Positions 1 through 64,000 of a stretch of 64,000 nucleotides of DNA are shown piece after piece. The stretch comes from an uncultured Actinomycetota bacterium (GTDB lineage: Bacteria; Actinomycetota; Thermoleophilia; RBG-16-64-13). The translations under genes were made by a program, and so were the position numbers. Location of the stretch: positions 5,306 to 69,305 of the forward strand of contig CAVTPV010000005.1 in NCBI GenBank assembly GCA_963736705.1, written 5' to 3'. Numbering within the stretch: position 1 is the first letter of the stretch; every line of letters starts with the position of its first letter. Below the pieces are notes generated by a model, which did not search any database, had not been told where the DNA came from, and worked only from the letters and a program-made list of their open reading frames with translations.

Positions 1-9
1 AAGCACGGC

Positions 10-218
10 GTGGACTTCGTCGAGGCTCAGAGACTCTGGCTCGACCCGGACTTGATGCGCGTCCGCGTGCTTCGCGACGTCGAAGAGCGCTGGCTGCTGC
101 TCGGAATGATAGGCGAGAAGCACTGGTCGGTCATCATCACATATCGCGGGACGCGGGTTCGCCTGATCTCGCACGCCGTTCTCGGCCCAAGGAGGTTGCT
201 GACTATGCGCGTCGATGA
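10..218 (+). CDS. brnT: BrnT-like toxin (DUF497 family); reading frame changes near nt ~165
   Basis: N-terminal 'WDPdK...V..L..E' and C-terminal '..RLIS..RRSRPKEVADYARR*' BrnT-like signature appear only after a +1 shift; stop at 216-218 is embedded in the start of the next gene (ATGCGCGTCGATGA). Confidence 0.5.
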
Positions 219-436
219 GTTCGAACGGAAGTTCGATGCCGGGAGGACATCACCGATATGCTGGACCTCGCCCGCTCTGAGCGCGTCTATCCGAAGACGC
301 AGCGCGTCAACGTCGACTTCCCTCCGTGGATGGTGGAGTCCCTCGACAAAGAATCGAAACGCCTGGGCGTGACCAGGCAGTCGCTCGATCAAGATGTGGC
401 TCGCCGAACGTCTCGAGCGCGTCGCGTCCAAATGAG
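205..436 (+). CDS. brnA: BrnA-like antitoxin (ribbon-helix-helix), two apparent frameshifts
   Basis: 'MRVDEFERKFDAG|EDITDMLDLARSERVYPKTQRVNVDFPPWMVESLDKESKRLGVTRQSL|IKMWLAERLERVASK*' is assembled from three frames; the FDAGEDIT...VNVDFP...LGVTRQS..K.WL.ERL pattern is typical of BrnA; the start overlaps the brnT stop. Confidence 0.5.
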
Positions 437-465
437 CAAGCAGCCCAGCCCGGAAGGAGGCCCCA

Positions 466-650
466 TGCCCGTCGTGATCGTGAAGATGCTGGAAGGCCGG
501 ACGGTGGAACAGAAGCGTGACCTGGCGTCCGCCATCACCGACGCGGTGGTCAAGCACACCGGCGCGCCGGCGGAAGCCGTGGACGTCATCATCGAGGACC
601 ATCCCCGGACCGACTGGGCCAAGGGCGGGACGCTCTACTCGGACAAGTGA
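466..650 (+). CDS. 4-oxalocrotonate tautomerase family protein (61 aa)
   Basis: 'MPVVIVKMLEGRTVEQKRDLASAITDAVVKHTGAPAEAVDVIIEDHPRTDWAKGG' shows the Pro1 tautomerase fold signature; a GGAGG RBS lies 6 nt upstream of the ATG. Confidence 0.7.
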
Positions 651-1375
651 CCGGCATGATCGCCGCGTTCCTGTGGGGAGGGCTGGCGGCTGTGTCCTTG
701 CTCGTCGGCTACGTGCTGGCGCTGGCGAGGCCTGTCCAACCGGACCGTCGGCCTGGTGATGGGCTTCGGGGCCGGGGCCCTCATCGCCGCTATCGCCTAC
801 GAACTCGTCCCCGACTCCGTGGACCGTGGCTGGGATACCGTGCTCTTCCTGCTCGGCGGCGCAGTGGTCTTCTTCTGATGGACTGGGTCGTCGACCACTG
901 GGGCGGCGCGAAACGCAAGACCATCGCCGGCGAGCACGAGGGGAGTTCGGGAGCCGTGGTCTACATCGGCACCCTGCTGGACGCCGTGCCGGAGTCGATC
1001 GTCCTGGGGATGGGCCTGGCGATGGGAGGCTCCATACGGCTGGCCTTCCTGGTGGCGGTGTTCGTGTCCAACGTGCCGGAAGCCGTCGCGGGGACGCTGA
1101 ATCTGGGCGCCGCCGGCCACTCTCGCAGGCAGATCCTCGGGATGTGGGTCTCGCTCGTTCTTCTGTCCGCGGCCGCGGCCGCGCTGGGAGCCGGTCTGGT
1201 CCAGGCGCTGCCTTCCGCGGATGGGACGCTTGCCCAGGCGTTCGCCGCCGGCGCCATGCTCATGATGCTGGCCGACGCGATGATCCCCGAGGCGTACCAG
1301 CACGGAGGCAGGCAGACGGGCCTGTGGACGGTGCTCGGCTTCGTGGTGGCCGCGGTGCTGTCGGCGTTGGACTGA
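647..1375 (+). CDS. ZIP-family divalent metal (Zn) transporter, at least 2 frameshifts
   Basis: Composite reading gives 'LLVGYVLAL..|VGLVMGFGAGALIAAIAYELVPDSVDRGWDTVLFLLGGAVVFF|LMDWVVDHWGG...GGSIRLAFLVAVFVSNVPEAVAGT...LADAMIPEAYQHGG', typical ZupT/ZIP motifs; GTG start overlaps the tautomerase stop. Confidence 0.6.
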   Translation: MTGMIAAFLWGGLAAVSLLVGYVLALARPVQPDRRPGDGLRGRGPHRRYRLRTRPRLRGPWLGYRALPARRRSGLLLMDWVVDHWGGAKRKTIAGEHEGSSGAVVYIGTLLDAVPESIVLGMGLAMGGSIRLAFLVAVFVSNVPEAVAGTLNLGAAGHSRRQILGMWVSLVLLSAAAAALGAGLVQALPSADGTLAQAFAAGAMLMMLADAMIPEAYQHGGRQTGLWTVLGFVVAAVLSALD

Positions 1376-1393
1376 GGGTCTCGCGCCCCGCGC

Positions 1394-4300
1394 CTACACC
1401 CCGTAGGCCGCGGCCAGCAGCGTGACCGGGTGCACCGCCTGCAAGGATGTCGCCTCGGCGATCTGCAACCGGCAGGTGCTGCATTCGCTGGCCACGAGGT
1501 CGGGGCCGACTGCCGCGATGCGCTCGAAGAGCGGCGCGCCGGTGAGCATCGACAGGTCGTAGGTGTCCTTCTTCATGCCGAAGGTGCCGGCCATGCCGCA
1601 GCAGCCGGCCGCGAGGTCGATCACTTCCACGCCTGGGAGCTCGCGAAGCAGCTCCACCCCCGGATTGCCGACCCCCTGCGCCTTGAGATGGCAGGGCTGA
1701 TGGTAGGCGACGCGACGGACCTCGCTCCACACACCGGGAAGCGGGCCGGCGACGGGCGACCGGTCTGGATGATCGGCTCGGTAGCGGACGAGGAACTCGC
1801 CCAGGTCGTGGGTGGCATCGGCGACCGCGGAGCAGTCCGGGCTCGACGAGGTAGTCCGGGTAGTGGACCTTGAAGGCGAAAGTGGCTGTCGGCTCGGCCG
1901 AGAGCACCACCGCGCCGCGTTTCGTCCAGGGCAGCATGGATGCCACGTTGTAGGCGGCCGTTTCGCGGGCTGAGTCGGCGTAGCCGTAGAGCATCTCCGG
2001 GATGCCGCTGGAGCGCTGCTCGGGGAGGACCACCTCGATGCCGTGGGCGGCGAGGAGGCGCAGCACCGTCTGCCCGAGGTCCGGGTCGTTGTAGGCGGCG
2101 TAGAGGTCGCTGAAGTAGGCGGCCAAAGGCCGGCGGGCGCCGAGGACGGGCGCCGGGTCGCCGGGCGTCGCGTGGACCGCGGCGCCGGGCGCGGTCTGGG
2201 CCAGGGTGTGCCGCGCGAAGCGCGGCATCCGGCGGCGCCTGTCGATGCCGGTGAGCGGCTCAGTCAGGCGGCGCACCAGGGGCTGAGCCAGCAGCGGGTT
2301 CGCCAGCGGCGCGAAGCGCCGGCCCAGGGCCGAGGTGGTCTCGGCGTGGCCGAGCGCCAGTTCGAGCGGGGAGCCGCGGTGGGCCGCCCGGTATTTGCTC
2401 TTGGCCTCCAGCATCAACTTGGGGATGTTGACGTTCGACGGACACTCCACCGCGCACATCCCGCACTCGATGCACCAGTCGGTGACCGACTTCATGGCGG
2501 CTTCGCCGTAGCTGGAGTCCGGGTCCAAGCGCCCCGGTGATGACCGCGCGCAGCAGGTTGGCCTTGGCGCGGGGCGACGCCGCCTCCCGGCGCGTCGCCT
2601 TGTAGGTGGGGCACATGGTGGTCACCACCGTGCTCTTGCATTGGGCGCAGCCGTGGCATTTTTCGATCTCCCGCTCGTATTCCTCGCCGGGGAAGTGCAG
2701 AAGCGGCTTCTGCGGGAAGGTGCGGTAGTCGAAACCGTAGCGCAGGTCACGGAGCAGGGGGCCGCTGGGTGCGGCGCCGGCCTGGGCGCCGCCGTCCCAG
2801 GCGGCCAGGTGCCGCTCTCCTCCTGCGGCCCCACTTTCTTGCCGGGGTTCATCAGACCCTGAGGATCGAACGCATTCTTGACCAGAGAGAACAGGGAGTA
2901 GATGGCATCCCCGTACGTCTGGCGGAGGTAGGGGGTGCGGAGCAGGCCGTCGCCGTGCTCGCCCGACATGGTGCCGCGGACGCCGCGGACGTAGGCCGAG
3001 ACCTCGTCGTAGAGGCGCTGCATGGTGCGCAGGTCGGCGGGGTCTTTGGGATCGAGGAGCGGGCGGGTGTGGATGTTGCCGTCGCCCACGTGGCCGTACA
3101 TGACGGCGTCCACGTGTTCGCGGTCGAAGAGGCGCTGCAGGAAATCGACGTAGCCGGGGACCTCGGTGGGATGCACGGTGACGTCCTCGATGAAGGGCAG
3201 CGCCCGACGGGGGCCCGGCATGCGCAGGGCCAGCGCCACGGCGGACTTGCGGACCGTCCAGAGGCGGGCGGCCTCTTCGGCGGACCGGGCGCGGACCATG
3301 GTGATGGCGCCGGTGCCGGCCAAGTGGCGCGCCAGGGCGGCGAACTTGTCGTCCACCTCGGCGTCGTCGCCCCCCTCGAACTCGATGAGCAGGGCGGTGT
3401 CGGTGTGCTCGGGCAACATGGCGTCCACGCGGGAGTCGTGCTTGCGCACCAGGGCGAGGAAGCGGGAGTCCATGATCTCGACGGCGGTGGGCGCCAGCGC
3501 CAGGATGCCCGGCACCGCCTCCCCGGACGCGAACACCGACGGGAAGTACGCCATGGCTATGCCGCGCCGCCGGGGCAGCGGCACCAAGTTCAGCGTGGCT
3601 TCGGTGACCAGTCCCAGCGTCCCTTCGGCGCCGACGAACAGCTTCTGGAGATGGACCAGGCTGGGCCCTTCGGGCCCCCGCGCCGCAGCCATGCCGGCGC
3701 CGCCGGCGCCGCAGCCCCGCGGCCCCCTCGCCGAACACCGTCTCCAGCCGGTACCCGGAACAGTTCTTGACCACATTGGGCATGGCCGCCGCGATGGCGG
3801 CGGCGTTGGCCTGCAACTCTGGAAGTAGCTTGGCGAACGCGCGGCCGGCGAGAGTGGCGGCACCGGACCAGGCGCCGGTTTCGGCGCCGTTCCCATGTCC
3901 GGCTCCCGCGCCCAGCAGGGCGGCCAGTTCGGCGCCATCGGCCGCCAAGGCCCGCGCCGTGAACGTGCTCCCATCCGCCAGCACGGTCTCCAGTGCCAGG
4001 ACGTGATCCTTGGTGCCACCGTAGGCGACGGTGCGGGCGCCGGAGGAGTTGGTGCCGATCATGCCGCCCAGGCTGCAGTAGTTCTCGCTGGAGGGGTCGG
4101 GGGCGAAGAAGGCGCCGTACTTGGCCGCTTCCTGGTTGAGGTTCGCCATGACCAGGCCGGGCTGCACCCGGGCCCAGGAGCCGTCGGGGGCGATCTCAAG
4201 GATGCGGTTCATGTACCGGGTGAAGTCCACCTGGATGCCCGCGCCCACGGCGCCGCCGGCCAAGCCGGAGCCCATGCCCCGGCCGACAAGGGGCAGCCCG

Positions 4301-4431
4301 TGCTCGGCGCAATACTGGACGAGGCGCACCACGTCCTCGGTGTCGCGCGGCGAGACGACGCCCAGCGGGGTCACCTGGTTGAGGCCGGCATCGGTGGCGT
4401 AGAGGTGGCGGGAGACGTCGTCGAACTCCAC
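1394..4431 (-). CDS. FAD-linked oxidase fused to Fe-S/CCG-domain oxidoreductase (YdiJ / GlcD+GlcF-like, ~1000 aa), multiple frameshifts
   Basis: N-terminal FAD-binding PCMH domain (VVSPRDTEDVVRLVQYCAEHGLPLVGRGMGSGLAGGAV) and FAD-oxidase C-terminal domain (HVGDGNIHTRPL...MSGEHGDGLLRTPYL...NPGKKV). These are followed by a 2x4Fe-4S segment (CHGCAQC...CPT, CIECGMCAVECP) and two CCG cysteine-rich domains (HQPCHLKAQGV...AGCCGMAGTFG). The pieces sit in three frames of ORFs 2260..4431, 2622..4019, 1260..2528 and 1394..1732. Confidence 0.65.
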
Positions 4432-4531: not shown

Positions 4532-6265
4532 TCACTTCAGGGGTATCACCGGCAGCAGCAGGTGCGACGGGTACTCCGCGTTGTGATAGACGCTGTGTGT
4601 CACGGTCTTGCTGCTGCACACGTGGTTCCCGATGTATTCGATGTTGCTCAGGCCGGCGGTGCCAGTCGGTACGTCGAGGCTGGTGATGTCCACGCAGATC
4701 CGGTGCCCGCGCAGGAACATGTTCGCCGTCGAGAGCAATTCTACCTGGTATTCGTTGATTTCCCCGGGGACAACCGGCTGCTGGGCCTCCCGAGTGAGCT
4801 TGTGGAACGGCGCCCAGGGCTTGCTGTGCTCCGCATCGAGGGCGCGGTGCGACGCCTTGAGCCATCCGCGGGTGAGTTCCCGCTCGGGAAGATCGCCCGG
4901 GACGTTACGTTCGCCCTCCCGTTGCGTCCGCACCGACACGTCCGGCCCCACGTCCGACAGGACGATGATCCAGTTGGTGTCGTCCTGGTCGAGGGCGGCG
5001 TGGATGGTCAGCGAGCAGGGGCCCACCACCAGCAGGTCGTCGGCCAGCGGCTCGCTCATGTAGCGGAGGCGCTCCACCTTCATGGTCTTCTTGAGCGGCA
5101 TCTGCGTGAAGACGTCGGGGTCGGGGTTGTAGCTCTGGGTCTGCTCCTTGGGCAGCGACTCCTCGGTGGTGAGGCGCTCCCAGCTGTCGAGGTAGAACTT
5201 GGTCCACTGCGTCTCGGGGGCGGGCCAGTCGCTGAAGGTGCGCCACTTGTTCTCGCCCATGACCCAGGTCTTCACCGGCGGGTCGGCCTCGGCGCCGTTG
5301 TCGATGCCCTTCAGCCAGTGGTCGTACCAGCGGATGATGTCGTCGTGCATGTCGTGGAACGGGCGTTCCATGTGGGCGGGTCCGTTGAAAAGGAGCCGTT
5401 TCTTGGGGGAGTTCTGAGCGTTGATGAACCAGTGCTGGGCTCCCTGCCAGTGCATCTTGTAGGTGTAGGCGTAGGCGCCGGAGCCGCAGACGAACGGGAT
5501 CTTCACCTTCTGGAAGTCCACCTCGCTCTTGGCGAGGAGTTCGGGATAGTCATACGGATCGATGAGCGTCCAGAACGTCATCCCCTGGCGCTGGCCCTTC
5601 TGGGTGAGGATGTTCCACAGGTGCGCGTACATCCGGTAGTCGGGGTTGTTCATGGCCCATTCCCACTTGGCCTCGTCCTCGGGCGATAGCGGCCCCGGCT
5701 GCCCGCACGGCTCGTGCACGCAGCTGAACATGCCCAGCAGGTAGGGCATCATCTGGAACACGCCGCCCGGATGGAACTCGCGGACGCTCCACATGCCGCT
5801 GAAGCCGCCCATGGAGTCGTACGGGTAGATGGCCTTGAGCGCCGGGTGCCCCTGCACCGCGGCCCGGAACTGCTCCCCGCCGAACGCCGATATGCCGATC
5901 ATGCCCACATTGCCGTCGCACCAGGGCTGCTGGGAGATCCACTCGATCATGTCGTAGTGGTCGGTCTCGTTGTCGGGCGTGTAGTCGCCCTCCGACTTGC
6001 CCACCCCGCGCAACTCCGCGATGACGTGCGCGTACCCGTTGGCCACCAGCCGCTTGGTGTCTCCGCCCTCCACCACGCCGTACCACAGTGAGGCGTAGGC
6101 CGGCTGGGGCGGCAGCGCTTCGGCGATCTCCGGGCGCTGCAGGTCTTTGTTGTGCACCGCGCAGGTGTAGAGCACCGGCGTGGCGCCGCCTGCTTTGGGC
6201 CTGTAGACGTCCACGGCCAGATGCACTCCGTCGCGCATCCGCACCATCACGTCACGTTCCTGGAT
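4532..6265 (-). CDS. CocE/NonD (peptidase S15) family hydrolase / X-Pro dipeptidyl-peptidase-like
   Basis: Uninterrupted ~578-aa ORF; 'GVHLAVDVYRP...PVLYTCAVHNKD...GYAHVIAELRGVGKSEGDY...GMIGISAFG' carries the alpha/beta-hydrolase GxSxG and the S15 N-terminal signature; the likely start is M at 'MIQERDVMVRM'. Confidence 0.7.
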   Translation of the reverse strand: MQERDVMVRMRDGVHLAVDVYRPKAGGATPVLYTCAVHNKDLQRPEIAEALPPQPAYASLWYGVVEGGDTKRLVANGYAHVIAELRGVGKSEGDYTPDNETDHYDMIEWISQQPWCDGNVGMIGISAFGGEQFRAAVQGHPALKAIYPYDSMGGFSGMWSVREFHPGGVFQMMPYLLGMFSCVHEPCGQPGPLSPEDEAKWEWAMNNPDYRMYAHLWNILTQKGQRQGMTFWTLIDPYDYPELLAKSEVDFQKVKIPFVCGSGAYAYTYKMHWQGAQHWFINAQNSPKKRLLFNGPAHMERPFHDMHDDIIRWYDHWLKGIDNGAEADPPVKTWVMGENKWRTFSDWPAPETQWTKFYLDSWERLTTEESLPKEQTQSYNPDPDVFTQMPLKKTMKVERLRYMSEPLADDLLVVGPCSLTIHAALDQDDTNWIIVLSDVGPDVSVRTQREGERNVPGDLPERELTRGWLKASHRALDAEHSKPWAPFHKLTREAQQPVVPGEINEYQVELLSTANMFLRGHRICVDITSLDVPTGTAGLSNIEYIGNHVCSSKTVTHSVYHNAEYPSHLLLPVIPLK

Positions 6266-6534
6266 CATGTTCTCGTAGACGGGCTCGTCGAGCGCCACTG
6301 CGCCTCCCTTCCTCGCCGGACGGCGCCGTTCCCCGGCCGCCGCCGCTGCGCGAGCGAATCTAGTAGTGACTAACCCCCACGATAGCGCAGTGGCCCGGTT
6401 CATGAGAGAATCTTTGGGTCCCGGTATCAGCGGCTCCGGCCGCCCGCGGGACGAGCAGCCTCAATCGGATTCACAAAGGAACCAAGCACCATGGAACGCG
6501 GCGCGTCCGCGTCGAGCAGAAAAGGGGGTGAGTC

Positions 6535-7471
6535 ATGCTTGCCATCCTCAAGACCACCGAAACGGGTCTCGAGAAAATAGAGGAGTTCGAACCGGGCTCC
6601 TGGATCGATCTGGTCAGCCCAACCGAGGAAGAGCTGCGACGAGTAAGCGGCGAGCTGGACATCCCGCTCGACTTCCTGAGTGCTCCCTTGGACGAGGAAG
6701 AGAAATCGCGGGTCGAGATCGAGGACGGGGCTCACCCTCGTGATCGTCGACATCCCGGTGCTGGTGGTGGAGGACGACGAGCGTAGCTACGCCACCATCC
6801 CGCTGGGGATGATCGTCCACAAGGATTACTTCATCACCATCTGCCTGCGCGTGAACCCCATCCTGGGCGAGTTCGAGCGGGGAACGGTCAAGAACTTCTT
6901 CACGTTCAAGAAGACCCGTTTCCTGTTCCAGATCCTGCAGACCATATCCGCGTTCTACCTGCGCTACCTCTATCGCATCGACCGCGAGACCGACAAGTTG
7001 GAGCGCGAACTGCGGGCGTCGTCGCGGAACGAATCCATCTATGACCTGCTCAACCTGCAGAAAGCCCTGGTGTACTTCACCACCTCGCTCCGCTCGAACG
7101 AGAGCGTGCTCCAGAAGCTCATGCGCGGGAAGAGCGTCAAGATGTACGAAGAGGACGAGGAGCTCCTCGAGGACACCCTCGTCGAGAACCGGCAGGCCTC
7201 GGAGATGGCCAAGATCTACACCGACATCCTCACGGGCATGATGGACGCGTTCGCTTCGGTCATCAACAACAACCTGAACCAGGTGATGAAGCTCCTCACC
7301 TCCATCACCATCATGCTGTCGGTGCCCGTCATCGTGTCGTCCTTCTGGGGGATGAACGTGAAGGTGCCGTTCGGGGTCAACTACGCCCACGGGTTCGTGA
7401 TCGCCATCGCGATCGCGGTGGCGGGGATCATCGGGTTCTTCATCGTGTTCTGGAGGAAGAAGTACTTCTAG
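6535..7471 (+). CDS. corA: CorA Mg2+/Co2+ transporter, 1 frameshift near 6730
   Basis: '...PLDFLSAPLDEEEKSRVEIEDG|LTLVIVDIPV...' continues to the C-terminal TM pair with 'FWGMNVKVPF' (the GMN motif) and 'GFFIVFWRKKYF*'. Confidence 0.7.
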
Positions 7472-9363: not shown

Positions 9364-9468
9364 ACACGACTCCCGTTCTGTGGAGGCTCAGAATTATATG
9401 CCTGCTAACCGCGTCGAGGCAAATGAGCGTGTTATCCTTCGGCGGTCTGCCCCCTGGAGGAACCATCC

Positions 9469-13740: not shown

Positions 13741-13743
13741 CCC

Positions 13744-14784: not shown

Positions 14785-14817
14785 CCGCGACAGCCGGCAA
14801 TAAGGGAGTGACAGATA

Positions 14818-15755: not shown

Positions 15756-16536
<781 letters not shown>

Positions 16537-17822: not shown

Positions 17823-17831
17823 AGCCGAGTC

Positions 17832-54173: not shown

Positions 54174-55268
54174 TCACCCGCGGACGGGGCAGGGGTGGAG
54201 TACGAAGACTTCGGGAGTATGCAGAGGCATCCATTTTGCTATGCCCAAGGATAGCATCAGCGGCTCTACTTGGCCGCCGCCCGCTCCCAGACTCGCCTCG
54301 ATGACCGGCCTGAGCACCCCCCAGGCCTCGTCCGCCGTCTCCACGTACTGGAAGATCTCCAGGTCGGCCGGGGCTATCACGCCCTCCTCCACCATCCCCC
54401 GGAAGTTGATCATCTTCTCCCAGTACTCCCGCCCGAAGAGCAGCACGGGCATGGGCTTGATCTTCCTGGTCTGGATGAGCGTGAGCACCTCGAACAACTC
54501 GTCCAGGGTGCCGTAGCCGCCGGGGAACACCACCAGGGCTATCGCCCGGAGCAGGAAGTGCATCTTGCGGATGGCGAAATAGTGGAAGTTGAAGCACAGG
54601 TGGGGCGTGATGTACTCGTTGGGTCTCTGCTCGAAGGGGAGCACGATGTTGAGGCCGATGTTGTCCACGCCGATGTCGTGAGCGCCCCGGTTGGCGGCCT
54701 CCATGACGCCCGGGCCTCCGCCGGTGACCACTACCACGCTCCCCTTGTCGTGCCGGATGATGCAGGATTCGTCATCCGCGGCGCGCTCGTCCTCGACGCC
54801 GCAGATCATCTGGGCCAGGCGGCGGGCCTCGTCGTAGTAGCGGCTCTTCTTGACCAGCGCCTGCACGGTCCGCAGACGCGCCGCGGCGTCCGCGTCATCC
54901 GGGTCCTCGGCGGCCTGCCGTTCGGCCTCGGCCAGGCGCCCGGCGGCGTCTTCGGGCGCGGGGATGCGGGCGCTCCCGAACACCACCACGGTGGCGGCGA
55001 TGCCCCGGTCGCGCATGAGGATGTCGGGTTTGAGGAACTCCAGCTGCAGACGGGCGCCGCGCAACTCGTCGCGCATGAGGAAGTCGGGGTCCTCATAGCT
55101 CAGCTTGTAGGCCGGGGACTCCGTCTGCGCCGTCTCGATGTCCATGCGGGCGCGCAGCCGGTCCTCGTGGGCCGACGGGAAGGGGCGCACCACCGGCGGA
55201 GGCTCCGGGCGAGGCTGCTCGGCGTCCTCGGGGATCGCGATCTTGTCAGGATCCACCTTGCCGTCCAC
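54174..55268 (-). CDS. LOG-family (TIGR00730 / PpnN-like) nucleotide 5'-monophosphate phosphoribohydrolase homolog with N-terminal extension, intact
   Basis: 'VVVFGSARI...' Rossmann start; 'VVTGGGPGVMEAANRGA'; 'ALVVFPGGYGTLDELFEVLTLIQT'. Confidence 0.7.
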   Translation of the reverse strand: MDGKVDPDKIAIPEDAEQPRPEPPPVVRPFPSAHEDRLRARMDIETAQTESPAYKLSYEDPDFLMRDELRGARLQLEFLKPDILMRDRGIAATVVVFGSARIPAPEDAAGRLAEAERQAAEDPDDADAAARLRTVQALVKKSRYYDEARRLAQMICGVEDERAADDESCIIRHDKGSVVVVTGGGPGVMEAANRGAHDIGVDNIGLNIVLPFEQRPNEYITPHLCFNFHYFAIRKMHFLLRAIALVVFPGGYGTLDELFEVLTLIQTRKIKPMPVLLFGREYWEKMINFRGMVEEGVIAPADLEIFQYVETADEAWGVLRPVIEASLGAGGGQVEPLMLSLGIAKWMPLHTPEVFVLHPCPVRG

Positions 55269-55276: not shown

Positions 55277-56622
55277 CCCCTCTGTGCGCTTGTCGACCAC
55301 CCGCTGGGCTTTGCCTTCTTGCCGCTCGATGGAGCCGGGCTCCTTGAAGTTCACGCCCACGTTGACGCCGATGATGTCCTTGATGTTCTTCTGGATGTTG
55401 GACTTCAGTAGCAGCATCTTCTCGTGCTCGGCGAAGGTGGCGACGTCGTCCATCGAGAGGATCGCCTCGGACACCTCGTGATAGAGATCCTGCTTGATCT
55501 CCACTTCCACCATCAGGTTGTCCATGGCGCCCTTGCGGGTGACGATGAGCCGGTAGTGCGGCTCCACCTGCGGCGACATGAGCAGCACCGACTCCACCTG
55601 GCTGGGGAAGACGTTGACGCCGCGGATGATGAGCATGTCGTCGGTCCGGCCCGATACGCGGGCCATGCGGGTGTTGGTGCGGCCGCAGATGCAGGGTTCG
55701 GTGGTAAGGCTGGTGATGTCGCCCGTGCGGTAGCGGATGAGCGGGAAGGCTTCCTTGGTGAGAGTGGTGAACACCAACTCACCCACGGAGCCCTCGGGCA
55801 GCACTTCGCCGGTCTCCGGGTCGATGATCTCGGGCAGGAAGTGGTCGTCGTTGATGTGCAGCCCGTTCTGGGCCTCCACGCACTCGCAGGACACGCCCGG
55901 GCCGATGATCTCGCTGAGGCCGTAGATGTCGCAGCCCTTGATGTTCCACTTCTTCTCGATGTCGGCGCGCATGGCGTTGGACCAGGGCTCGGCGCCGAAC
56001 ACGCCCACCTTGAGCGGGAACTTCGTGACGTCGATGCCCTGCTGCTGGGCCACGTCGTAGAGGTAGAGCATGAAGCTCGGGGTGCAGCAGATGACCGTGG
56101 TGCCGAAGTCCTGCATGAGCATGATCTGGCGCTGGGTGTTGCTGCCCGAGATGGGGATGACCGCCGCGCCCAGGCGCTCCGCGCCGTAGTGGGCGCCCAG
56201 GCCGCCGGTGAACAGGCCGTAGCCGTAGGCCACCTGGACCACGTCGTCGGCGGTGGTGCCCGCCCCGGCCAGGGCGCGGGCCATGACGTCGGCCCACATG
56301 GCGATGTCGTTCTTGGTGTAGCCCACGGTGGTCGGCTTGCCGGTGGTGCCGGAGGAGGCGTGGATGCGCACCACGTCGCGCAGCGGCACGGCGAACAGCC
56401 GAAGGGATAGTTGTCGCGCAGGTGGTACTTGCGGGTGAAGGGCAGGAGCGGCAGATCCTGGATGCCGCGGATCTTGTCCGGCGAGACGCCCTGCTCGTCA
56501 AAGAGGGATCTATAGAAGGGGACCCGATCGTAGACACGTTTGGCCAGGGAGACGAGGCGCTCGCTTTGCAGCTTCTCGAGTTCCTTGCGGTCCATGCATT
56601 CGTGTTCGCGGTCGAAGATCAT
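55277..56622 (-). CDS. paaK: Phenylacetate-CoA ligase family (PaaK / coenzyme F390 synthetase-like) adenylate-forming enzyme, 1 frameshift near 56395
   Basis: '[21 protein letters not shown]...[20 protein letters not shown]' + '[27 protein letters not shown]...[25 protein letters not shown]...RYRTGD'. Confidence 0.75.
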
Positions 56623-56724
56623 CTGCGGGTACCCCTAGCTATGACGGTTATGCAGCCGCCAGATGGTATAGGCGGGGCGCTATAGCGTCAACCGCCGGAC
56701 ACCGAACGCGGGGCTTTCCTCCTG

Positions 56725-58693
56725 CTATCTCGGGGTGGCAGGACTCCCGCCCACCAGATTCTTGATGGCTGCTCCCAGGAGATCCCACAATCTGCTCATG
56801 AAGGACTGCGAAAACGCCTTTGAAGCGAGGGGCCCGTCCTGATACGTGTAGAGGTCGGTGTCGGTGGGCGTATCTGGGTCCGGTTCAGGAGTGCCGCCTC
56901 CCACCGCGGTCACCTGCACCCGCACGGTGCCGGCGGCGCCTGGCGGCGCGACGGCGGTGATCTGCTCGTGAGAGTCCACCGTGTACTCCGCCTCGTTGGT
57001 TCCGAAGAGCACCGAGGTCACCCCGACGAAGTTCTGTCCGGTGATCACCACATCGTTCCCTCCTTCGGCCGGCCCCTCTGTCGGAAGGAGAGCGGTGATG
57101 ACCGGAGGATCCACATAGGCGTAGTCATCGGCGGCGGTGTCGGCCGTGACGCCCCCGGCGGTAGTGACCCGCACTTGCACCGGGCCGGCATCGTGGGCAG
57201 GGGTGGTCGCCGTGATCTGGGTGGCGGAGTCGAGGGTGTAGACGGCGGCGTTCTTGTCCCCGAAGGCGACGGCGGTCGCGCCGAGCAGATCCGTCCCGGT
57301 GATGACGACCGTGGTGCCTCCCTCAATGGGGCCGGCCGCCGGGCTGATCCCGGTGAGTGTGGGCGGCGGCACATAGGTGTAGTCATCGGCGCCGGTGTCG
57401 GCCGTGACGCCCCCGACGGTGGTGATCTGCACCTGCACCGGGCCGGCGGCGTGGGCAGGGGTGGTCGCGGTGATCTTGGTGGCGGAGTCGACCGTGTAGG
57501 CGGGCGTTGCCGCCCCCGAAGGTCACCGCCCCCGACCCTGTCAACCCGATGAAGCCGGTGCCTTTGATGACCACCGTGGTGCCCCCGTCGATGGGGCCGG
57601 CCGCCGGGCTGATCTCAGTGATGGTGGGTACCGGCGCATAGGTGTAGTCATCGGCGTCGGTGTTGGTGGTGGCGCCCCACGGGCCCGTCACTTTCACCCG
57701 CACCTTGCCGGCGGTATGAGTGGGAGCGGTGGCGGTGATCTGGGTGGCGGAGTCGACGGTGTAGACGGCCGTGGTGTCCCCAAAGAAGACGGCGCCGGTG
57801 GGGCTCACTCCCGTGAAGTCCGTGCCGGTGATGACTACGATGGTGCCCCCGGCCGTGGGACCCACCGTCGGGCTGAGCGCGGTGATCGCCGGAATGGGGA
57901 TGTACACATAGTCGTCGGCCGCGGTGTTGGCGGTGGTGCCTCCGGCGGTCGTCACCTTCACTCGTACGGCGCCGGCGGCATGAGCGGGAACGGTGGCTGT
58001 GATCTTGGTGGAGGAGTCGACGGTGTAGGCGGCGGCGTTGGTGGCCCCGAAGGCGACCGCGCTCTGCCCCGTCAGCCCGATGAAGCCGGTGCCCGAGATG
58101 ATGATCTCGTCCCCCCCGGTGACGTAGCCGCTCCCTTTGGAGAGCCCTGTGATCGTGGGAGGACTCACATAGGTGAAGTCGTCGGCGGCCGTATTGGCCG
58201 TGTCGCCCCCGGCCGCTGTCACCTGGATCTGGACCTTCCCGGCGGCGTGAGCGGGGGAGGTCGCGGTTATCTGGGTGGCGGAATCGACAACGTAGTCCGG
58301 GTCCGCATCGATCCCTCCGAACGTGACGGCAGTCACGCGGATGAAGCCGGTGCCCTTGATGACCACTTTGGTGCCCCCGGCGGTGGGGCCTGCGCCCGGG
58401 CTTCGACTGGTGATGGTGGGAACGGGCGGCGCCGTCGTGGTGGTGGTCCGGGGCTGGGTCGTTGTGGTCGGAGCCTCCGTGGTGGTGACCGATTCGGTGG
58501 TGGTCGGCGCCTGGGTCGTGGTGGTCATCGGCTCAGTCGTGGTCACCACCTCAGTCGTGGTCACCGTCTCGGTCGTCATCACCGCCACGGTGGTGGTCGT
58601 GGTCTCCGGACTGCCGCACCCGGTGACGGCCGGCGCGAAGGCGAGCAGCGACGCGATGAGTACGCCGAGCGCAACACGTTTGATGGACCTCAC
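56725..58693 (-). CDS. Lipoprotein with Thr-rich linker and ~7 tandem IPT/TIG (Ig-like) repeats; 1 frameshift near 57450
   Basis: Lipobox 'LLAFAPAVTGCGS'; repeated unit 'P.IT..SP..GP..GGT.VVI.GT.F.G......V.FG......YTVDS.TQITAT.PAH.AG.V.V.VTT.GG.T..T..DDYTY' about 7 times. Confidence 0.6.
56800..58400. repeat. About 250-bp tandem direct repeats (coding IPT/TIG modules) — collapse/expansion risk in assembly
   Basis: Near-identical nucleotide blocks such as 'gtgtagacggcggcgttcttgtccccgaaggcgacggcggtcgc...' recur at ~255-bp spacing. Confidence 0.5.
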
Positions 58694-58875
58694 CGGACCT
58701 CGACCTCCTCCTCAAATGGCGGGCAGACCATGTTCATGGGAGCTTACTTACCCCCTTGCGCAGGTAAACAGTCGAAGGTGCCTCCGCAAGTGGCCTAGGT
58801 GACGGTCTCGCCGGTATGTGCTAGCCTCTTGCGGTTCGCCCGAAGGCCACGCCGGCCGGCGAACCATGCCATCGT

Positions 58876-60147
58876 GCCAGTAGGGAGGCCGTTATAAGCA
58901 ACGGCACGGTCAAGAATATCGGTTCGCGTCTCGCGTGTTCCCTCCTCTTCATCCTGCTCTTCGTGCTGATGGGGGCTACGGCCGTCCAGGCCGAACCGCA
59001 GGACCTCTCCAACGCCAAGAGCGAGGCTGCCACCCTCGAGGCTCAGCTGAAGGAGTTGAAGGAGCAGGCCGCGGCGCTCCAGGGTACATACGACTCCGCG
59101 AACAAGCAGCTGGCCCAGATCGAGGCCGACGCCGCGGAGTATGCGGACCTGCTCGCCCAGGCCCAACAAGACCAGTTGGACGCCGAAGACGCGTTGACCG
59201 CGCGGCTCGTTAACATCTACAAGCAGGGACGGAGCGGTACTCTCGACGTGCTGCTCAGCTCCGACTCGTTGGCCGACCTCATCCATCGCGCCACGGCCCT
59301 CAAGCGGATAGGCAAGCAGGACGCCGATCTTCTCGATCAGGTGACCACCTATCGTGCCCAAGTCGCCGAACACGAGTCGAGGCTTACCTCGGAGCTGGAG
59401 AAACAGCAGGTCGTCACTGCCCAGGCGGAGGTCGCCCAGCAGGCCATGACTCAGAAGCTCGCCGAGGCGAAGAGCCTGCTGAAGGGCAAAGAAGCCGAGG
59501 TCGCCCAACTGGATAAAGAGTGGAAGGCCAAGGTGGCCGAACAGGCGCGGCTCGAGCGGGCGCGCCAAGCCAAGCTGGAAGCTGCCTTGGCGGCCGCGCA
59601 GGCGGCCGCGCAGAACGGCGGCAGCAGTGGGGGCGGTAGCGGCGGCGGTAGCGGCGGCAGCACCAACACCACGGTCCGTACCACCAGCACCACCAACCGC
59701 ACCACCACGACGACCGGCGGCAGCTCCGGTGGCACCGGGACCTACCACCCCGGCGTCCGCAACATCCTGAAGCCCGAACAGATCGCTCTGGCTGCCCAGA
59801 AGGCCGGCTTCTCCGGGGAGAACCTGGTGATCTCGGTGGCGGTGGCCATGGCCGAATCCGGCGGCGACGCCAATGCCATAGGCCGCCTCAAGACCTACGG
59901 CCTCTGGCAGATCTTGGCCTCCGCCCACCCCACCATGATCAGCCCCAGCAATCCGAACGCGAGCAGATGGTACGACGCCTACGTGAACGCCGGATTCGCC
60001 TGGAAGATATCGAAGTCGGGGGCGACATGGCGGCCGTGGTCGGTCTACACCTCAGGCTCCTACTCGAAATACATGACCAGGGCGCGCACCGCGGTGAACG
60101 TCCTTCTCAACGATCCCGGTTCGATAACGCCGCCCGGGGTGAAGTAG
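58876..60147 (+). CDS. Secreted coiled-coil protein with C-terminal lytic-transglycosylase/lysozyme-like domain (PcsB-like architecture); start uncertain (GTG 58876 to GTG 58963)
   Basis: Signal peptide 'LACSLLFILLFVLMGATAVQA'; long heptad-like coiled coil; Gly/Ser/Thr linker; 'AVAMAESGGDANAIG...YGLWQI'. Confidence 0.55.
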   Translation, partial: ASREAVISNGTVKNIGSRLACSLLFILLFVLMGATAVQAEPQDLSNAKSEAATLEAQLKELKEQAAALQGTYDSANKQLAQIEADAAEYADLLAQAQQDQLDAEDALTARLVNIYKQGRSGTLDVLLSSDSLADLIHRATALKRIGKQDADLLDQVTTYRAQVAEHESRLTSELEKQQVVTAQAEVAQQAMTQKLAEAKSLLKGKEAEVAQLDKEWKAKVAEQARLERARQAKLEAALAAAQAAAQNGGSSGGGSGGGSGGSTNTTVRTTSTTNRTTTTTGGSSGGTGTYHPGVRNILKPEQIALAAQKAGFSGENLVISVAVAMAESGGDANAIGRLKTYGLWQILASAHPTMISPSNPNASRWYDAYVNAGFAWKISKSGATWRPWSVYTSGSYSKYMTRARTAVNVLLNDPGSITPPGVK

Positions 60148-60160
60148 TGACCTCGGCGGG

Positions 60161-60826
60161 CTAGACCTTGAAGGCCGACGGACAGATGTCGTTCAGCAGG
60201 CAGTCGCCGCAGCGCGGGCGTTTCGCGTCGCAGACGGCCCGGCCGTGCTCGATGAGCAGGTAGGTGAGCTCGAACCAGTCGGCGCGGGGGACCACGTCCA
60301 TCAGTTCCCGCTCGATCTTCTCCGAATCCTTGGACGCCGCCAGGCCGAGGCGCTGGCTCAGCCGGTTGACGTGGGTGTCCACGGCGATGCCGGAGTCCGG
60401 GTCGCTGAGGTAGGCCTCGGGGTAGGCGTTGCCCAGGACGATGTTGGCCGTCTTGCGTGCCACGCCCGGCAGGGTGAGGAGCTCCTGCATGCTGGCCGGC
60501 ACCTCGCCGCCGTAGTCCGCGAGGATCTTCTGGGCGGAGGCGATCACGTGCTTGGCCTTGTTGTGGAAGAAGCCGGTGGAGTGGATGTCCTGCTCGAACT
60601 CGGCCAGGTCGGCGCCGGCGTAGTCCGCGACGGTCCGGTACTTCTTGAACAGGTTGGCGGTCACCTTGTTGACGGTGACGTCGGTGGTCTGGGCGGAGAG
60701 CATCACGCAGACCAGCAGCTCCCAATCGTTGCTGAAGTTCAGCACGATGTGGGCGTCGGGGTACTCGCCGCGCAACCGGCGGATGACCTCCACGGCTTGG
60801 GCTTTCTTGTCTGCGACTGTGGGCAT
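60161..60826 (-). CDS. nth: Endonuclease III (Nth), intact
   Basis: HhH-GPD 'LLTLPGVARKTANIVL'; catalytic 'DTHVNRLSQRLG'; 4Fe-4S 'CDAKRPRCGDCLLNDICP'. Confidence 0.85.
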   Translation of the reverse strand: MPTVADKKAQAVEVIRRLRGEYPDAHIVLNFSNDWELLVCVMLSAQTTDVTVNKVTANLFKKYRTVADYAGADLAEFEQDIHSTGFFHNKAKHVIASAQKILADYGGEVPASMQELLTLPGVARKTANIVLGNAYPEAYLSDPDSGIAVDTHVNRLSQRLGLAASKDSEKIERELMDVVPRADWFELTYLLIEHGRAVCDAKRPRCGDCLLNDICPSAFKV

Positions 60827-60886
60827 ATGCGCATGATACGGCAGAAATTGACTACAATTACACCCGGATAGCCTGTCGCCCAAGGA

Positions 60887-61486
60887 TTGGAGGACGCCAT
60901 CGACGGGCAAGCGGTGACACGAGTGATCGTCGGGATAACGGGAGCGTCCGGGACCATCTACGGGGTGCGGCTCCTGGAGGTCCTGCGCGACTCCGGCATC
61001 GAGACGCATCTGGTGATGAGCGAGGCCGCCCGCCGGGTGGCGGAACTGGAGACCGGCTACAGCGCGGCCGACATCGAAGCCCTGGCCGACTACTCCTACG
61101 CCAACAGCGAGATCGCCGCGCCCATAGCCTCGGGCTCGTTCACGACCAGCGGCATGATCGTGGCGCCCTGCTCCATCAAGAGCCTGTCGGCCATCGCTCA
61201 CAGCTACAACGACAGCCTGCTGGCCCGCGCCGCCGACGTCTGCCTCAAGGAGCGGCGCAAGCTGGTGCTGGTGGTGAGGGAGACCCCGCTGCATCTGGGA
61301 CATCTGCGCTTGATGGCGGAGGTCACCGAGTACGGGGCGATCGTCCTGCCCCCGATGCCGGCGTTCTATCACCAGCCCAAGACCATCGCCGACCTGGTGG
61401 ATCAGACCGTGGGCAAGGTGCTGGACCAGTTCGGCATCGACCACGACCTGTACCGGCGCTGGGGCGGTGGCGGATCCGGTGAGTGA
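60887..61486 (+). CDS. ubiX: Flavin prenyltransferase UbiX (prFMN synthase), intact
   Basis: 'RVIVGITGASGTIYGVRLLEVL...HLVMSEAA...GMIVAPCSIKSLSAIAHSY.DSLL.RAADV.LKERRKLVLVVRETPL'. Confidence 0.85.
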   Translation: MEDAIDGQAVTRVIVGITGASGTIYGVRLLEVLRDSGIETHLVMSEAARRVAELETGYSAADIEALADYSYANSEIAAPIASGSFTTSGMIVAPCSIKSLSAIAHSYNDSLLARAADVCLKERRKLVLVVRETPLHLGHLRLMAEVTEYGAIVLPPMPAFYHQPKTIADLVDQTVGKVLDQFGIDHDLYRRWGGGGSGE

Positions 61487-61531
61487 CGGGCCTGCCGCTG
61501 CGGCGACGCCGCCGGGTGTCTCCGCGAGCGG

Positions 61532-62054
61532 GTGGCGGAGTATCTGCGCGCCCATCACACCATGACCGTGGCCACGGTGGGGCCGCTCCCGGCCGCGGAA
61601 GCCGGGGCCGGCGGGTCGCGGCGGGCGGCGCCGCGGCGCGCTCGGCGGCGCCGCGGACTCCGGGCCTGCCGTGCCGCATGCCGCCAGCGTCTTCTACGCC
61701 GTCGACGACGATCTGCGGCTGATCTTCCTCAGCAAGTCCGACAGCACGCACGGGCTGCACATCGGGACAGGCGGCGCCGGTGGCCGTCACCGTCACCGAG
61801 CAGTACGACGACTGGGAGGACATCCGGGGCGTGCAGCTCTGGGGCGTCGCCAAGCGGGTCACCGGGCCGGCGAAGGTCGCCGCCATGGCCGCCTACCTGC
61901 GGCGCTTCCCCTTCGTCGCGACCTGCTGGAGCAGCCGCGGCTGGCCGCGGCCATGCGCGGCGTCTCCGTCTACCGGGTGGAGCCGCACCGCGTGGCCTTC
62001 ACCGACAACACCACGGGCGTGTTCGGTCGGGAGATCCTCGACCTGAAAGGATGA
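61532..62054 (+). CDS. Pyridoxamine-5'-phosphate-oxidase-like FMN-binding split-barrel protein, at least 3 frameshifts
   Basis: 'AEYLRAHHTMTVATVGP', 'PHAASVFYAVDDDLRLIFLSKSDSTHGLHIG', 'VAVTVTEQYDDWEDIRGVQLWGVAKRV', 'GVSVYRVEPHRVAFTDNTTGVFGREILDL'. Confidence 0.55.
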
Positions 62055-62220
62055 CCGGCATGCAGTCCTCCGGCTACACCCGCTACAGCGTCGGAGTCGG
62101 GCAAGCACGAGGTGCGCACGCGCGCGCACCGGCCGCGCCGTCCTGTGGGTGCTCATCGCCGTGGCGTGCGCGGTCATCGTCGTCTTCGCCTATCTCCTCG
62201 CGACCGGGGGGCAGCTGTGA
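62051..62220 (+). CDS. Possible small single-TM protein (~56 aa), frameshifted; overlaps both neighbours' stop/start
   Basis: 'MTGMQSSGYTRYSVGVG..' then 'AVLWVLIAVACAVIVVFAYLLATGGQL*'; ATGA overlap upstream, GTGA overlap downstream. Confidence 0.3.
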
Positions 62221-63450
62221 CCGTGGACCTCGCGTTCCCGGCCGGGAGGTGGGACTTCGTCCCCGCCGCGGAGATCGAGAGCCGCACCCGGCGCTTCCAG
62301 GCGGCTCTGGCGCAGGCCGGAGTCCAGCTGGCGCTCATCGTGCTGAACGCCGATCTCTTCTATCTCACCGGGACCATCCAGCAAGGGGCGCTGCTCGTGC
62401 CCGCGGAGGGCGAGCCGGTCCTGCTGGTCCGCAAGGACCCGGACAGGGCCCGGGTGGAGTCGCCGGTCAAGGACATCCGGCCGCTGGGCAGCCTGCGGGA
62501 GATGCCCGCCGGTCATCGCCGAGTTCGGTCTGGGCGCGGACGCGGTCGTGGGGATGGAGTTGGACGTCGTCCCGGTGAGCGTCTTCCGGCGCTATGAGGC
62601 GCTGCTTCCGGGGACGGCGATCAAGGACTGTTCGCCGGTCATCCGGGCGGTCCGCTCGGTGAAGTCGGCCTACGAGCGGGCCTTCACCGCCGAGGCCGCG
62701 AAGATCGTGGACGCCGGTTTCCGGGCGGCGGTCGAGACGCTGCGCCCGGGCATGACCGAGCTCGAGCTGAGCGCCGAGTGCGAGGCGGCCATGCGCCGCG
62801 TGGGCAACAGCAACGTGCAGGACCCACCAGTTCAACGAGGACTGGCCGTTCGGCAACGTCTCCGCGGGGCCGCACGCGGGCCTCGCCGGCTATACCGGCA
62901 ACCCTCTGGCGGGGGCGGGGATGTCCCCGGCCATCGGCCAAGGCTCCGGCTGGCGCGTCATCGCTCCGGGCGACCCCGTGGTGGTCGACCTGGTCGTCGT
63001 TCGCCGGCGGCTACTACTGCGATCAGACCCGCATCGTCAGCATCGGCCCGGTGGCGGACGACCTGGCGGCCGGCCAGCGTCTCTGCGAGGAGGTGCAGGA
63101 GGTGGTCCGCCAGACGGCCAAGGCGGGCGTGCGTCTGCGGCGACGTCTACAAGACGGCCAACGATTGGATGACGGAGCAGCTCGCCTCCGCGGGCCTGGA
63201 CGCCTACTTCATGGGCGCTCCCAACAACCAGGTTCCGTACATCGGTCACGGGGTCGGCCTGGAGCTGGACGAACTGCCGGTACTGGCCCGCGGCTTCAAG
63301 ATGGTGCTCGAGCAGGACCACGTGGTCGCCTGCGAACCCAAGCTGGTGTTCCCGGGACGGGGCGTGGTGGGCGTCGAGAACACCTGGCGGGTGACGGCTT
63401 CCGGCCTCGAAAGGATCACCGTATCGGCGGACGCGCTCGTCGAAGTCTGA
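62217..63450 (+). CDS. M24-family Xaa-Pro aminopeptidase / creatinase-like metallopeptidase, at least 4 frameshifts
   Basis: Creatinase_N-like N-terminus 'VDLAFPAGRWDFVPAAEIESRTRRFQAALAQAGVQLALIV'; C-terminus 'VPYIGHGVGLELDELPVLARGFKMVLEQDHVVACEPKLVFPGRGVVGVENTWRVTASGLERIT'. Confidence 0.65.
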
Positions 63451-63523
63451 GCCCGGGACCGTTTCCCTTTTCTTCGTTATTCGTTGCCTCATGAGTTGAC
63501 CATGCCCCGCCGATAATCAAGGC

Positions 63524-63760
63524 ATGGAGATGTTTCACACTTGGAAGTGCCCCGGATGCGGGGCCTTGGTCGGCATGCCCGGTGACGCTCCCGCACCCGT
63601 AGACGTCCGGTCCGAGAAGCGGCTTGACCAGCTCGCTCAGGCGTCGTGCGGGTGTTGGGTCGACACCCTCTCTGACCGCGGCATGGCCAGGCTGCTCGAC
63701 GCCATCGTCAGCCTCGATGATGTGCGCACGACCCGCGTTTACTGCGCCCACAGGTTCTAG
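63524..63760 (+). CDS. Small Cys-rich putative zinc-ribbon protein (78 aa), intact
   Basis: 'CPGCG...(36)...CGC' pairs; no other homology recognised. Confidence 0.4.
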   Translation: MEMFHTWKCPGCGALVGMPGDAPAPVDVRSEKRLDQLAQASCGCWVDTLSDRGMARLLDAIVSLDDVRTTRVYCAHRF

Positions 63761-63767
63761 GAACAAG

Positions 63768-64000
63768 CTAGACCGGCCACGTCCCCGTGTTGGCGACGTC
63801 GCCCGCAGTGAGCCAGGCCCGCCGCGCCTCCCCGATACCCCACCTGAGATTGTCGAAGTCACCCGGCGCGTGAGCGTCGCTGCAGATGACCATCCTTGCT
63901 CCCAGTGACGCCGCCCGCCGCGCGGCGGGGGCGGCCAGGTCCAGGCGGTCGGGGGAACCGTTGATCTCCAGGAAGGTGCCGGTCTCGGCCGCCACTCGGG
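63768..64000 (-). CDS. C-terminal fragment of a PHP-domain phosphoesterase (PolX/histidinol-phosphatase-like); runs off the window
   Basis: 'FLEINGSPDRLDL...GARMVICSDAHAPGDFDNLRWGIGEARRAWLTAGDVANT'. Confidence 0.45.
   Translation of the reverse strand, partial: RVAAETGTFLEINGSPDRLDLAAPAARRAASLGARMVICSDAHAPGDFDNLRWGIGEARRAWLTAGDVANTGTWPV

Follow-up and report, generated by a model that had tools for sequence, protein, structure and literature searches.

Single-base frameshifts pervading 64 kb of an uncultured soil actinobacterium contig are very probably long-read consensus errors, mostly insertions outside homopolymers

In pseudogene-rich decaying genomes, such as that of Mycobacterium leprae or those of recent endosymbionts, a large fraction of genes is interrupted, and in programmed frameshifting or slippage (prfB, dnaX, insertion sequence (IS) elements, endosymbiont poly-A tracts) the change of frame is tied to defined slippery motifs that are conserved among orthologues. 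Classical homopolymer errors of 454, Ion Torrent and Nanopore R9.4.1 sequencing yield frameshifting single-base insertions and deletions (indels) and truncated gene calls, and assemblies made from Nanopore reads only with metaFlye and Medaka retain residual indels that break genes in the same single-base manner, at ~0.05-3 per kb between contigs, and that are absent from short-read relatives. We have analyzed 64,000 nucleotides of contig CAVTPV010000005.1 from an uncultured Actinomycetota bacterium (hereafter the window, the whole 64-kb stretch; guanine-plus-cytosine content (GC) 68%, or 0.676), in which single-base changes of frame run through conserved genes, essential ones among them. Very probably, these frameshifts arose as errors in the consensus of a long-read metagenome assembly, and the organism's own DNA lacks them. 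They belong to the known class of long-read indels that truncate proteins but, unlike the textbook picture, are insertion-rich and independent of homopolymers.

The window resembles each of these systems in part. In contrast to decaying genomes, it has no in-frame stops, excess divergence, deletions or IS elements, its lesions are almost all +1, and its core metabolism is hit as often as its accessory genes. As in programmed frameshifting, the protein continues in another frame, but here there is neither a motif nor conservation of the sites, and a single gene would require up to 12 shifts. Compared with the errors of 454, Ion Torrent and R9.4.1, the sites show no homopolymer enrichment and the inserted base is usually unlike both of its neighbours. 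As to Nanopore-only assemblies, the literature ties their errors to low coverage (PMC12313526, PMC9262707, PMC13087279); these descriptions stress homopolymers and the coding density of whole metagenome-assembled genomes (MAGs), whereas the kb-scale patches and 6:1 excess of insertions seen in the window are not described there.

Frame changes were mapped with a local dynamic programming aligner of protein against DNA in which frameshifts are allowed (BLOSUM62, gap 11/1, frameshift penalty 20). Reference open reading frames (ORFs) were drawn from 18 syntenic loci of relatives (L001-L004 around citrate synthase, L005-L015 around accD, L085 around the S15 peptidase, L086 and L087 around LOG), which between them cover nearly all of the window, with DNA identities of 70-89%, and at most five references from different loci were aligned per gene. 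An event was called with high confidence when at least 60% of the covering references agreed and at least 6 of 10 residues were identical on each flank. This gave 87 high-confidence events (75 of +1, 12 of -1) and 31 of medium confidence; real gene calls of relatives, taken as references, added three events in a TetR gene, three in a Metallophos_2 gene, one in a 97-aa gene and two in a CNNM gene, and ~11 more were found by three-frame reading of genes lacking a reference (brnT, two in brnA, two in a ZIP gene, CorA, a TIG gene and at least three in a HAD gene). The total amounts to ~110-125 frame changes in 64 kb, ~90 of them well supported, with an event density of 1.62 per kb of coding DNA. 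Among ~59 coding sequences (CDS), 39 are frameshifted and 19 intact, in keeping with the first-pass annotation of this DNA, which had read at least 35 of ~60 as shifted. At 68% GC, conserved DNA also has conserved ORFs in antisense and in its other frames. The noise that this caused in a track of the best high-scoring segment pair (HSP) frame at each position was too great, and per-gene chaining and dynamic programming alignment took its place. Some stop-to-stop reference ORFs were themselves fused, off-frame or frameshifted (L011_5365_6912, L003_6231_8006, L010_18673_19743, L087_18421_18822 and ORFs of L002), and calls that stemmed from faulty references (9465, 26908, a '46561-46930 minus' gene and an L002-only -1 at 36927-37180) were dropped or redone with real gene calls.

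At ~90 sites, a 1-nt indel is immediately followed by the continuation of the conserved protein sequence in a different frame, and the protein is of full length once the indel is repaired. Up to five of five references read through each site. Ten repaired proteins, when compared with Pfam, gave single end-to-end domain matches spanning the repair sites, across as many as 6 shifts, e.g. Peptidase_M24 over 4-208 of 208, FAD-oxidase_C over 2-247 of 248 and all three domains of a thiamine pyrophosphate (TPP) enzyme at full length. The repaired TPP enzyme is collinear over residues 1-542 with 80 independent metagenome contigs, all of them relatives that match at no more than 63% identity; in the scan of genome contigs, the best match to accD was 87%. 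In a plot of GC by codon position, the phase with the GC-rich third position switches frame within same-strand coding stretches. Most of the individual calls of the first-pass annotation were borne out by the alignments: brnA is shifted twice, korA carries 3 shifts, korB 6-8, the MFS gene 11-12 and the M24 peptidase gene 4, and fabD, accD, accA, the HNH endonuclease, the S15 peptidase, activase 1, GAPDH, nth, ubiX and LOG are all intact. Two of its counts needed adjustment. While fabH is indeed shifted, it has two firm shifts (14204, 14295) and not ~4, and the '~5 in 300 nt' given for the N-terminus of the NuoG-like gene is roughly right, nine shifts being spread over 1.15 kb and its first ~460 nt holding four.

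If the indels were real and recent, the organism would have a decaying genome or have undergone a mutator burst, with most of the shifted genes being fresh pseudogenes. The frame changes are truly present in the deposited sequence, and one HAD-like gene, low in GC, absent from relatives and with at least 3 shifts, could be a true pseudogene. However, this reading would leave 39 of 59 genes dead, including fabZ, fabH, fabG, fabF, gltA, korAB, moeA and the gene of a phosphoenolpyruvate (PEP)-utilising enzyme. In citrate synthase (gltA), for example, residues 1-64 lie in one frame and the other 382 in another, and the orthologues are single proteins of 446 aa. Best-reference alignments contain 0 in-frame stops inside genes, and shifted genes share a median of 83% identity with their orthologues vs. 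85.5% for intact ones; excess amino-acid divergence, large deletions and IS elements are likewise absent from the window. Shifts in fabZ, fabH, fabG, fabF, gltA, korAB and also moeA, together with zero stops and ordinary divergence, argue that the phenomenon is not biology. Furthermore, a bias of 86% towards +1 insertions, whatever the base, matches no known mutational spectrum, the affected patches cross gene and strand boundaries, and long-read contigs that are unrelated have an identical pattern, which short-read assemblies of relatives never show. A decaying genome or mutator burst is therefore very unlikely. Still less credible is that the extra bases exist in the cell's DNA with ~1.6 insertions per kb being tolerated through some correcting step that acts on RNA or at the ribosome, or that the lineage has just emerged from a burst of mutagenesis. 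Taken together, real insertions of any kind are very unlikely, and the first-pass annotation, in preferring sequencing or assembly error to pseudogenes, is supported by the absence of stops, the shifts in essential genes and the near-clean short-read relatives.

As a control for technology, the same frameshift pipeline was applied to every reference locus. The eight short-read loci (L004, L005, L008, L012, L014, L015, L085 and L086; SPAdes 'NODE', MEGAHIT 'k141', LaPlata and WOOD18 scaffolds) gave 0-0.14 events per kb. The 'contig_N' loci, which come from ENA assemblies and MAGs of the Nanopore-only long-read project of Microflora Danica (MFD-LR), gave 0.05-3.2 per kb, with 3.2 for L013, 2.0 for L002, 1.75 for L011, 1.1 for L001 and 0.9 for L010, and the 1.62 per kb of the window lies within the range of its long-read relatives. 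The phenomenon thus tracks how an assembly was made rather than the lineage. The closest DNA relatives of the window, L001 and L002, are themselves ENA 'contig_N' records (L002 being ERZ25039461 contig_181001), and L003, which shares its ENA assembly with L002, is contig_132793 of MAG MFD00709.bin.2.159. Shift positions in these long-read sister contigs are unrelated to those of the window, and no shift was shared with any orthologue at the same position, with up to five relatives compared per site. The sisters also resemble the window in kind: insertions outnumber deletions 31:3 in L011, 21:6 in L002 and 13:5 in L010, and most localised insertions in L001, L002, L010, L011 and L013 form a run of 1, although L013, unlike the mostly +1 L001, L002, L010 and L011, has about as many deletions as insertions (about 1:1). 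The MFD-LR assemblies were made by Flye from Nanopore reads only with one round of Medaka, and their lower-coverage MAGs show reduced coding density (PMC12313526); earlier work of the same group found that bins below ~40-fold coverage still need short-read polishing (PMC9262707), and more frameshifts have been reported in Oxford Nanopore (ONT) than in HiFi soil assemblies (PMC13087279).

Single-base insertions make up ~86% of the events in the window, with insertions and deletions at ~6:1. Each insertion was located by the single-base deletion that best restores DNA identity to the references. At 71% of localised sites the inserted base differs from both neighbours (run length 1), compared with 51-56% under a null of random insertion, and at 3% it falls within a run of at least 4, where the same null gives ~4-5%. 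The first-pass annotation had offered homopolymer errors as an example of a mechanism, citing gccGGGagg in brnA. The brnA case itself stands (-1 at ~248), insertions at 2535 (GGGG) and 26676 (CCCCC) also lie inside runs, and CCCG/CGGG is ~2-fold enriched within 6 nt of sites, but the mechanism does not generalise: 11% of +1 sites vs. 8% of random coding positions have a run of at least 4 no more than 3 nt away, and for runs of at least 5 the shares are 3% vs. a background of 2%, so that no homopolymer enrichment was found near +1 sites. Looked at from the runs, only 4 of 83 runs of at least 5 and 1 of 14 runs of at least 6 have a frameshift call within 6 nt. With 71% of insertions forming a run of 1 and insertions exceeding deletions ~6:1, classical homopolymer-length miscalls are a highly improbable source of these errors. 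The inserted bases were C15, G14, T13 and A9, shift density had no link to GC (rho -0.07), and there was no strand effect (1.48 vs. 1.61 per kb).

A k-mer search at the sites found no strong motif besides CCCG/CGGG, whose weak enrichment (28 of 73 +1 sites vs. 13.5 expected) has an uncorrected p=6e-5, or ~0.007 when corrected for 114 k-mers. This excess could be a context effect of the basecaller or polisher, or a by-product of uncertain localisation. Several insertion sites look as though a C had been added just before a run of G. These data also bear on the notion that the shifts are decoded in the cell by programmed ribosomal frameshifting, transcriptional slippage or other recoding. The conserved protein resumes immediately after each shift, as it would in a recoded gene, but the sites have no slippery heptamer, poly-A/T tract or common motif, their codon context is random, their positions are not conserved in orthologues, up to 12 shifts in both directions would be required in a gene, and the same pattern recurs in other species' contigs produced by the same technology. 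We regard recoding as vanishingly improbable.

The distribution of the errors is uneven, as had been noticed at first sight. Among the 82 high-confidence events retained in the 51.6 kb of coding sequence that could be called, the variance-to-mean ratio rose with bin size from 1.81 (500 bp) through 2.50 (1 kb) to 3.85 (2 kb), values that none of 5000 uniform simulations reached (0/5000; p<0.0002), and the longest error-free stretch had p=0.009. Dense stretches lie at ~24-32, 38-42 and 44-48 kb, with up to 4 events per kb, and clean ones at 17.1-20.7, 42.4-44.3 and 49.0-52.5 kb, the last of these holding one medium call near 51.15 kb. The patches span several genes on both strands and cross gene boundaries. 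The first-pass annotation had considered such clustering unusual in itself; the clustering is real but typical of this type of data, since L013, L001, L002 and L010 show patches of the same kind. In L013, 57 of 59 events fall in the first 11 kb; in L001, 14 of 17 fall in the first 4.8 kb; and L002 has zero events between 9.96 and 15.7 kb. Clustering is thus a general property of such long-read contigs.

We surmise that Nanopore reads alone most likely went into the contig, with metaFlye and one Medaka round as for the Microflora Danica catalogue. At very low effective read depth, the polished consensus would retain stray single bases, in the main one extra nucleotide of whatever base and at no particular place, while adequate depth would leave it clean. 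With depth varying on the scale of read length, kb-sized patches of error would arise regardless of gene boundary or strand, and the dense patches would presumably be stretches with few supporting reads. Gene callers would then split genes at the errors, with wrong frames kept open by the 68% GC, producing chimeric ORFs. Consistent with long reads, the S15/CocE-NonD hydrolase of the window is 100% identical to P0241 (588 aa), a protein encoded on a 1,777,065-bp contig in NCBI and ENA, of which the window is probably a piece; a 1.78-Mb contig from an uncultured soil actinobacterium would imply long reads.

Another artefact might give a similar picture, namely patchy short-read polishing, a consensus collapsed from several strains, or an assembly of the PacBio continuous long read (CLR) type. 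An excess of any-base insertions is typical of raw CLR reads, and an alternation of clean and dirty stretches on the kb scale can be produced by patchy polishing or strain bubbles as well. However, a project that relied on Nanopore reads only and polished with Medaka is the source of the closest relatives and of the sister contigs that share the signature, and error density is independent of GC, which it would often follow where Illumina polishing had failed. We consider such an artefact unlikely, though with a modest chance of being correct. Several points weigh against Nanopore-only consensus error as we describe it: 1) the platform and depth of the contig are inferred; 2) the textbook Nanopore artefact is deletion in homopolymers, whereas insertion outside homopolymers is found here, a pattern that matches the sister contigs empirically; 3) a published description of this non-homopolymer insertion pattern was not found; 4) the margin of localisation was frequently 1, so that the identities of inserted bases are approximate; 5) the best relatives are 85-89% identical in DNA, and a high-accuracy assembly of the same species was not among the references.

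The biological significance of these frameshifts is small, and their practical relevance lies in truncated and chimeric proteins entering databases. Unless its frameshifts are dealt with, this contig will yield erroneous annotation, pseudogene counts, coding density, completeness and metabolic reconstruction. Databases already contain truncated products, as exemplified by P0002, a 335-aa citrate synthase fragment from L002 that is the representative of a cluster with 4 members. Homopolymer-aware fixes would miss most of the errors, these being insertions of any base outside homopolymers. In addition, a single quality figure per contig conceals bad stretches, as the density of errors shifts ~ten-fold within a few kb. 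At 68% GC, six-frame lists contain long chimeric ORFs that resemble new large proteins. In the window, such a list holds 231 ORFs of at least 100 aa vs. ~59 real genes, as is expected at this GC, and ORF length is therefore no guide to coding. The three long ORFs which the first-pass annotation had taken for chimeras are so, following the true frame over 64% (1762 aa), 27% (944 aa) and 44% (723 aa) of their length.

Once the stray bases are removed, the genes of the window are intact and encode ordinary metabolism of the Gaiellales type; the closest protein similarity of the window genes is to uncultured Actinomycetota of Gaiellales or Thermoleophilia type. A tRNA scan and an Rfam scan at the gathering threshold of the whole 64 kb returned zero tRNA genes and zero families. 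The genes and their shifts are as follows, positions being those of the window.

1 to 435, plus strand: brnT (cut by the window start) and brnA, a toxin-antitoxin pair (Pfam BrnT_toxin), read directly from the DNA frames with no reference locus; brnT has a -1 at ~168, brnA a -1 at ~248 (gccGGGagg) and a +1 at ~388 (ctcGatc).
465 to 650, plus strand: 4-oxalocrotonate tautomerase, intact; Pfam Tautomerase 1-59 of 60, 88% identity to the L085 orthologue.
647 to 1375, plus strand: ZIP-family transporter with shifts at ~745 and ~875 by three-frame translation; Pfam Zip matches a single frame in the C-terminal part only.
1397 to 4431, minus strand: FAD_binding_4/FAD-oxidase_C/Fer4/CCG oxidoreductase of ~1010-1070 aa, aligned to L085 and with full-length domains after repair; shifts at 1847 and 2535 (high confidence) and 2782 and 3717 (medium).
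4532 to 6298, minus strand: S15/CocE-NonD hydrolase, intact over 1.77 kb, with no shift vs. L085.
6532 to 7471, plus strand: CorA with one +1 at ~6715; the N-terminal 60 aa are in the other frame, and the long ORF matches Pfam CorA over 48-290 of 292.
7512 to 9363, minus strand: conserved 628-aa protein, shift at 9147 (4 of 5 references).
9466 to 10706, plus strand: MoeA, shifts at 9907 and 10136 (5 of 5 references).
11168 to 13167, minus strand: RNase_T and GIY-YIG (UvrC-like) protein, shifts at 11426, 11700, 12709, 12938 and 13023 (5 of 5 references; Pfam on the repaired protein).
13311 to 14769, plus strand: fabZ (13536) and fabH (14204, 14295), by reference alignment.
14754 to 15755, plus strand: fabD, intact, 91% identity to L005.
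15755 to 17821, plus strand: fabG (15878, 16410) and fabF (17125), 5 of 5 references agreeing.
17787 to 20123: accD (plus), accA (plus) and an HNH endonuclease (minus), all intact, within a 3.5-kb error-free stretch (17125-20666).
20153 to 21526, plus strand: RarA-type AAA ATPase, shifts at 20666, 20880 and 21388 (5 of 5 references).
21505 to 23648, plus strand: membrane-anchored Pro/Ala/Glu-rich protein, shift at 21608 and several weaker calls near both ends.
23678 to 24770, minus strand: OB-fold and HD-domain protein, shifts at 23987 and 24492 and a weaker one at 24712.
24836 to 26570, minus strand: MFS_1 transporter, the heaviest-hit gene (12 shifts in 1.7 kb, 11 of high confidence and 1 medium); 5 of 5 references at most sites, Pfam MFS_1 after repair.
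26522 to 27205, minus strand: LppX_LprAFG lipoprotein, shifts at 26612, 26676 and 26794.
27368 to 28880, plus strand: a 157-aa gene, a 109-aa gene and a VTT/DedA gene, all intact.
28898 to 31729, minus strand: amino-acid ABC transporter, with shifts in the ATPase (29258, 29571), permease (29784, 29938, 30236, 30261, 30364) and binding protein (31040, 31102, 31211, 31353, 31432).
31842 to 35877, plus strand: radical SAM protein (32315), HATPase_c_2 protein (intact), 678-aa protein (33809) and 117-aa protein (35751).
35877 to 37218, minus strand: citrate synthase gltA, a single +1 at 37029 (4 of 4 references).
37238 to 38875, minus strand: TPP enzyme (acetolactate-synthase-like), shifts at 37326, 37981, 38203, 38316, 38376 and 38524; 95% identity to L001 after repair.
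Within 38993 to 42413, plus strand: TetR (39261, 39334, 39446) and korA (39876, 39928, 40700).
40910 to 42413, plus strand: korB-gamma fusion, shifts at 41051, 41313, 41338, 41369, 41481, 41786, 41971 and 42398.
42605 to 43384, plus strand: BcrAD_BadFG activase 1, intact.
43397 to 44062, plus strand: HAD-like hydrolase (Pfam Hydrolase_3 in the C-terminal part) between two BcrAD_BadFG activase genes, at least 3 frame changes in 0.66 kb.
Within 44219 to 47217, plus strand: activase 2 (44309, 44454), a 97-aa gene (45424), a Fer2_4/Fer4 'NuoG-like' gene with 9 shifts between 45615 and 46555, and Metallophos_2 (46792, ~46990, 47118), the last from gene calls of relatives.
47306 to 48361, minus strand: GAPDH, intact, from gene calls of relatives.
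Within 48654 to 54166, minus strand: PPDK_N/PEP-utilizers protein of ~1440 aa (49038, ~51150, 52554) and CNNM/CBS/CorC gene (~52910, ~53885), both crossed by the 1762-aa ORF.
54174 to 55268, minus strand: LOG/TIGR00730 gene, intact.
55280 to 58693, minus strand: PaaK-like AMP-binding ligase (-1 at 56396) and IPT/TIG repeat protein (+1 at ~57440).
58963 to 61474: PcsB-coiled-coil/SLT_3 lysozyme-like gene (plus), nth (minus) and ubiX (plus), all intact.
61514 to 63447, plus strand: 221-aa protein (61598, 61773, 61917) and M24 peptidase (62511, 62818, 62996, 63129; Pfam on the repaired protein).

Several of these genes have features of their own. The brnT/brnA pair is located directly upstream of the tautomerase gene. 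The contig neighbourhood of P0372 likewise contains BrnT, a CopG-like antitoxin, a tautomerase, the FAD/CCG oxidoreductase, an S15 peptidase and CorA, and may thus be that of a closer relative. The S15/CocE-NonD hydrolase falls into a cluster at 90% identity whose 109 members come from many metagenomes, and its next-best homologues include Bradyrhizobium, Paraburkholderia and Pseudonocardia at 61-64% identity, a wider sharing than that of the neighbouring genes. Within the membrane-anchored protein gene, a 607-aa ORF (21627-23450, plus strand) encodes a Pro/Ala/Glu/Val-rich low-complexity protein of which only the two ends align with relatives. In the kor locus, korB and a gamma (POR) domain are apparently fused through a Pro/Ala/Arg-rich linker, as in L001 (517 aa), and are split in L003 (375+221 aa) and L004 (366+240 aa); the calls in the linker at 41786, 41971 and 42398 have L001, itself a long-read locus, as their sole reference, that at 41971 being of high confidence and the others weak.

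The HAD-like gene has a GC of 0.60 vs. 0.676 for the window, and at its position L003, L004, L086 and L087 have nothing or a toxin-antitoxin pair. It may be an acquired gene and, at 43.4-44.1 kb, is the sole one in the window that could be a candidate for a true pseudogene. Towards the end of the window, the block of the IPT/TIG surface protein and the PcsB/SLT_3 protein (56725-60147) has no counterpart at this position in L086 and L087, where the interval from nth to the PaaK-like ligase is occupied by UbiA and SDR genes or by AFOR genes.

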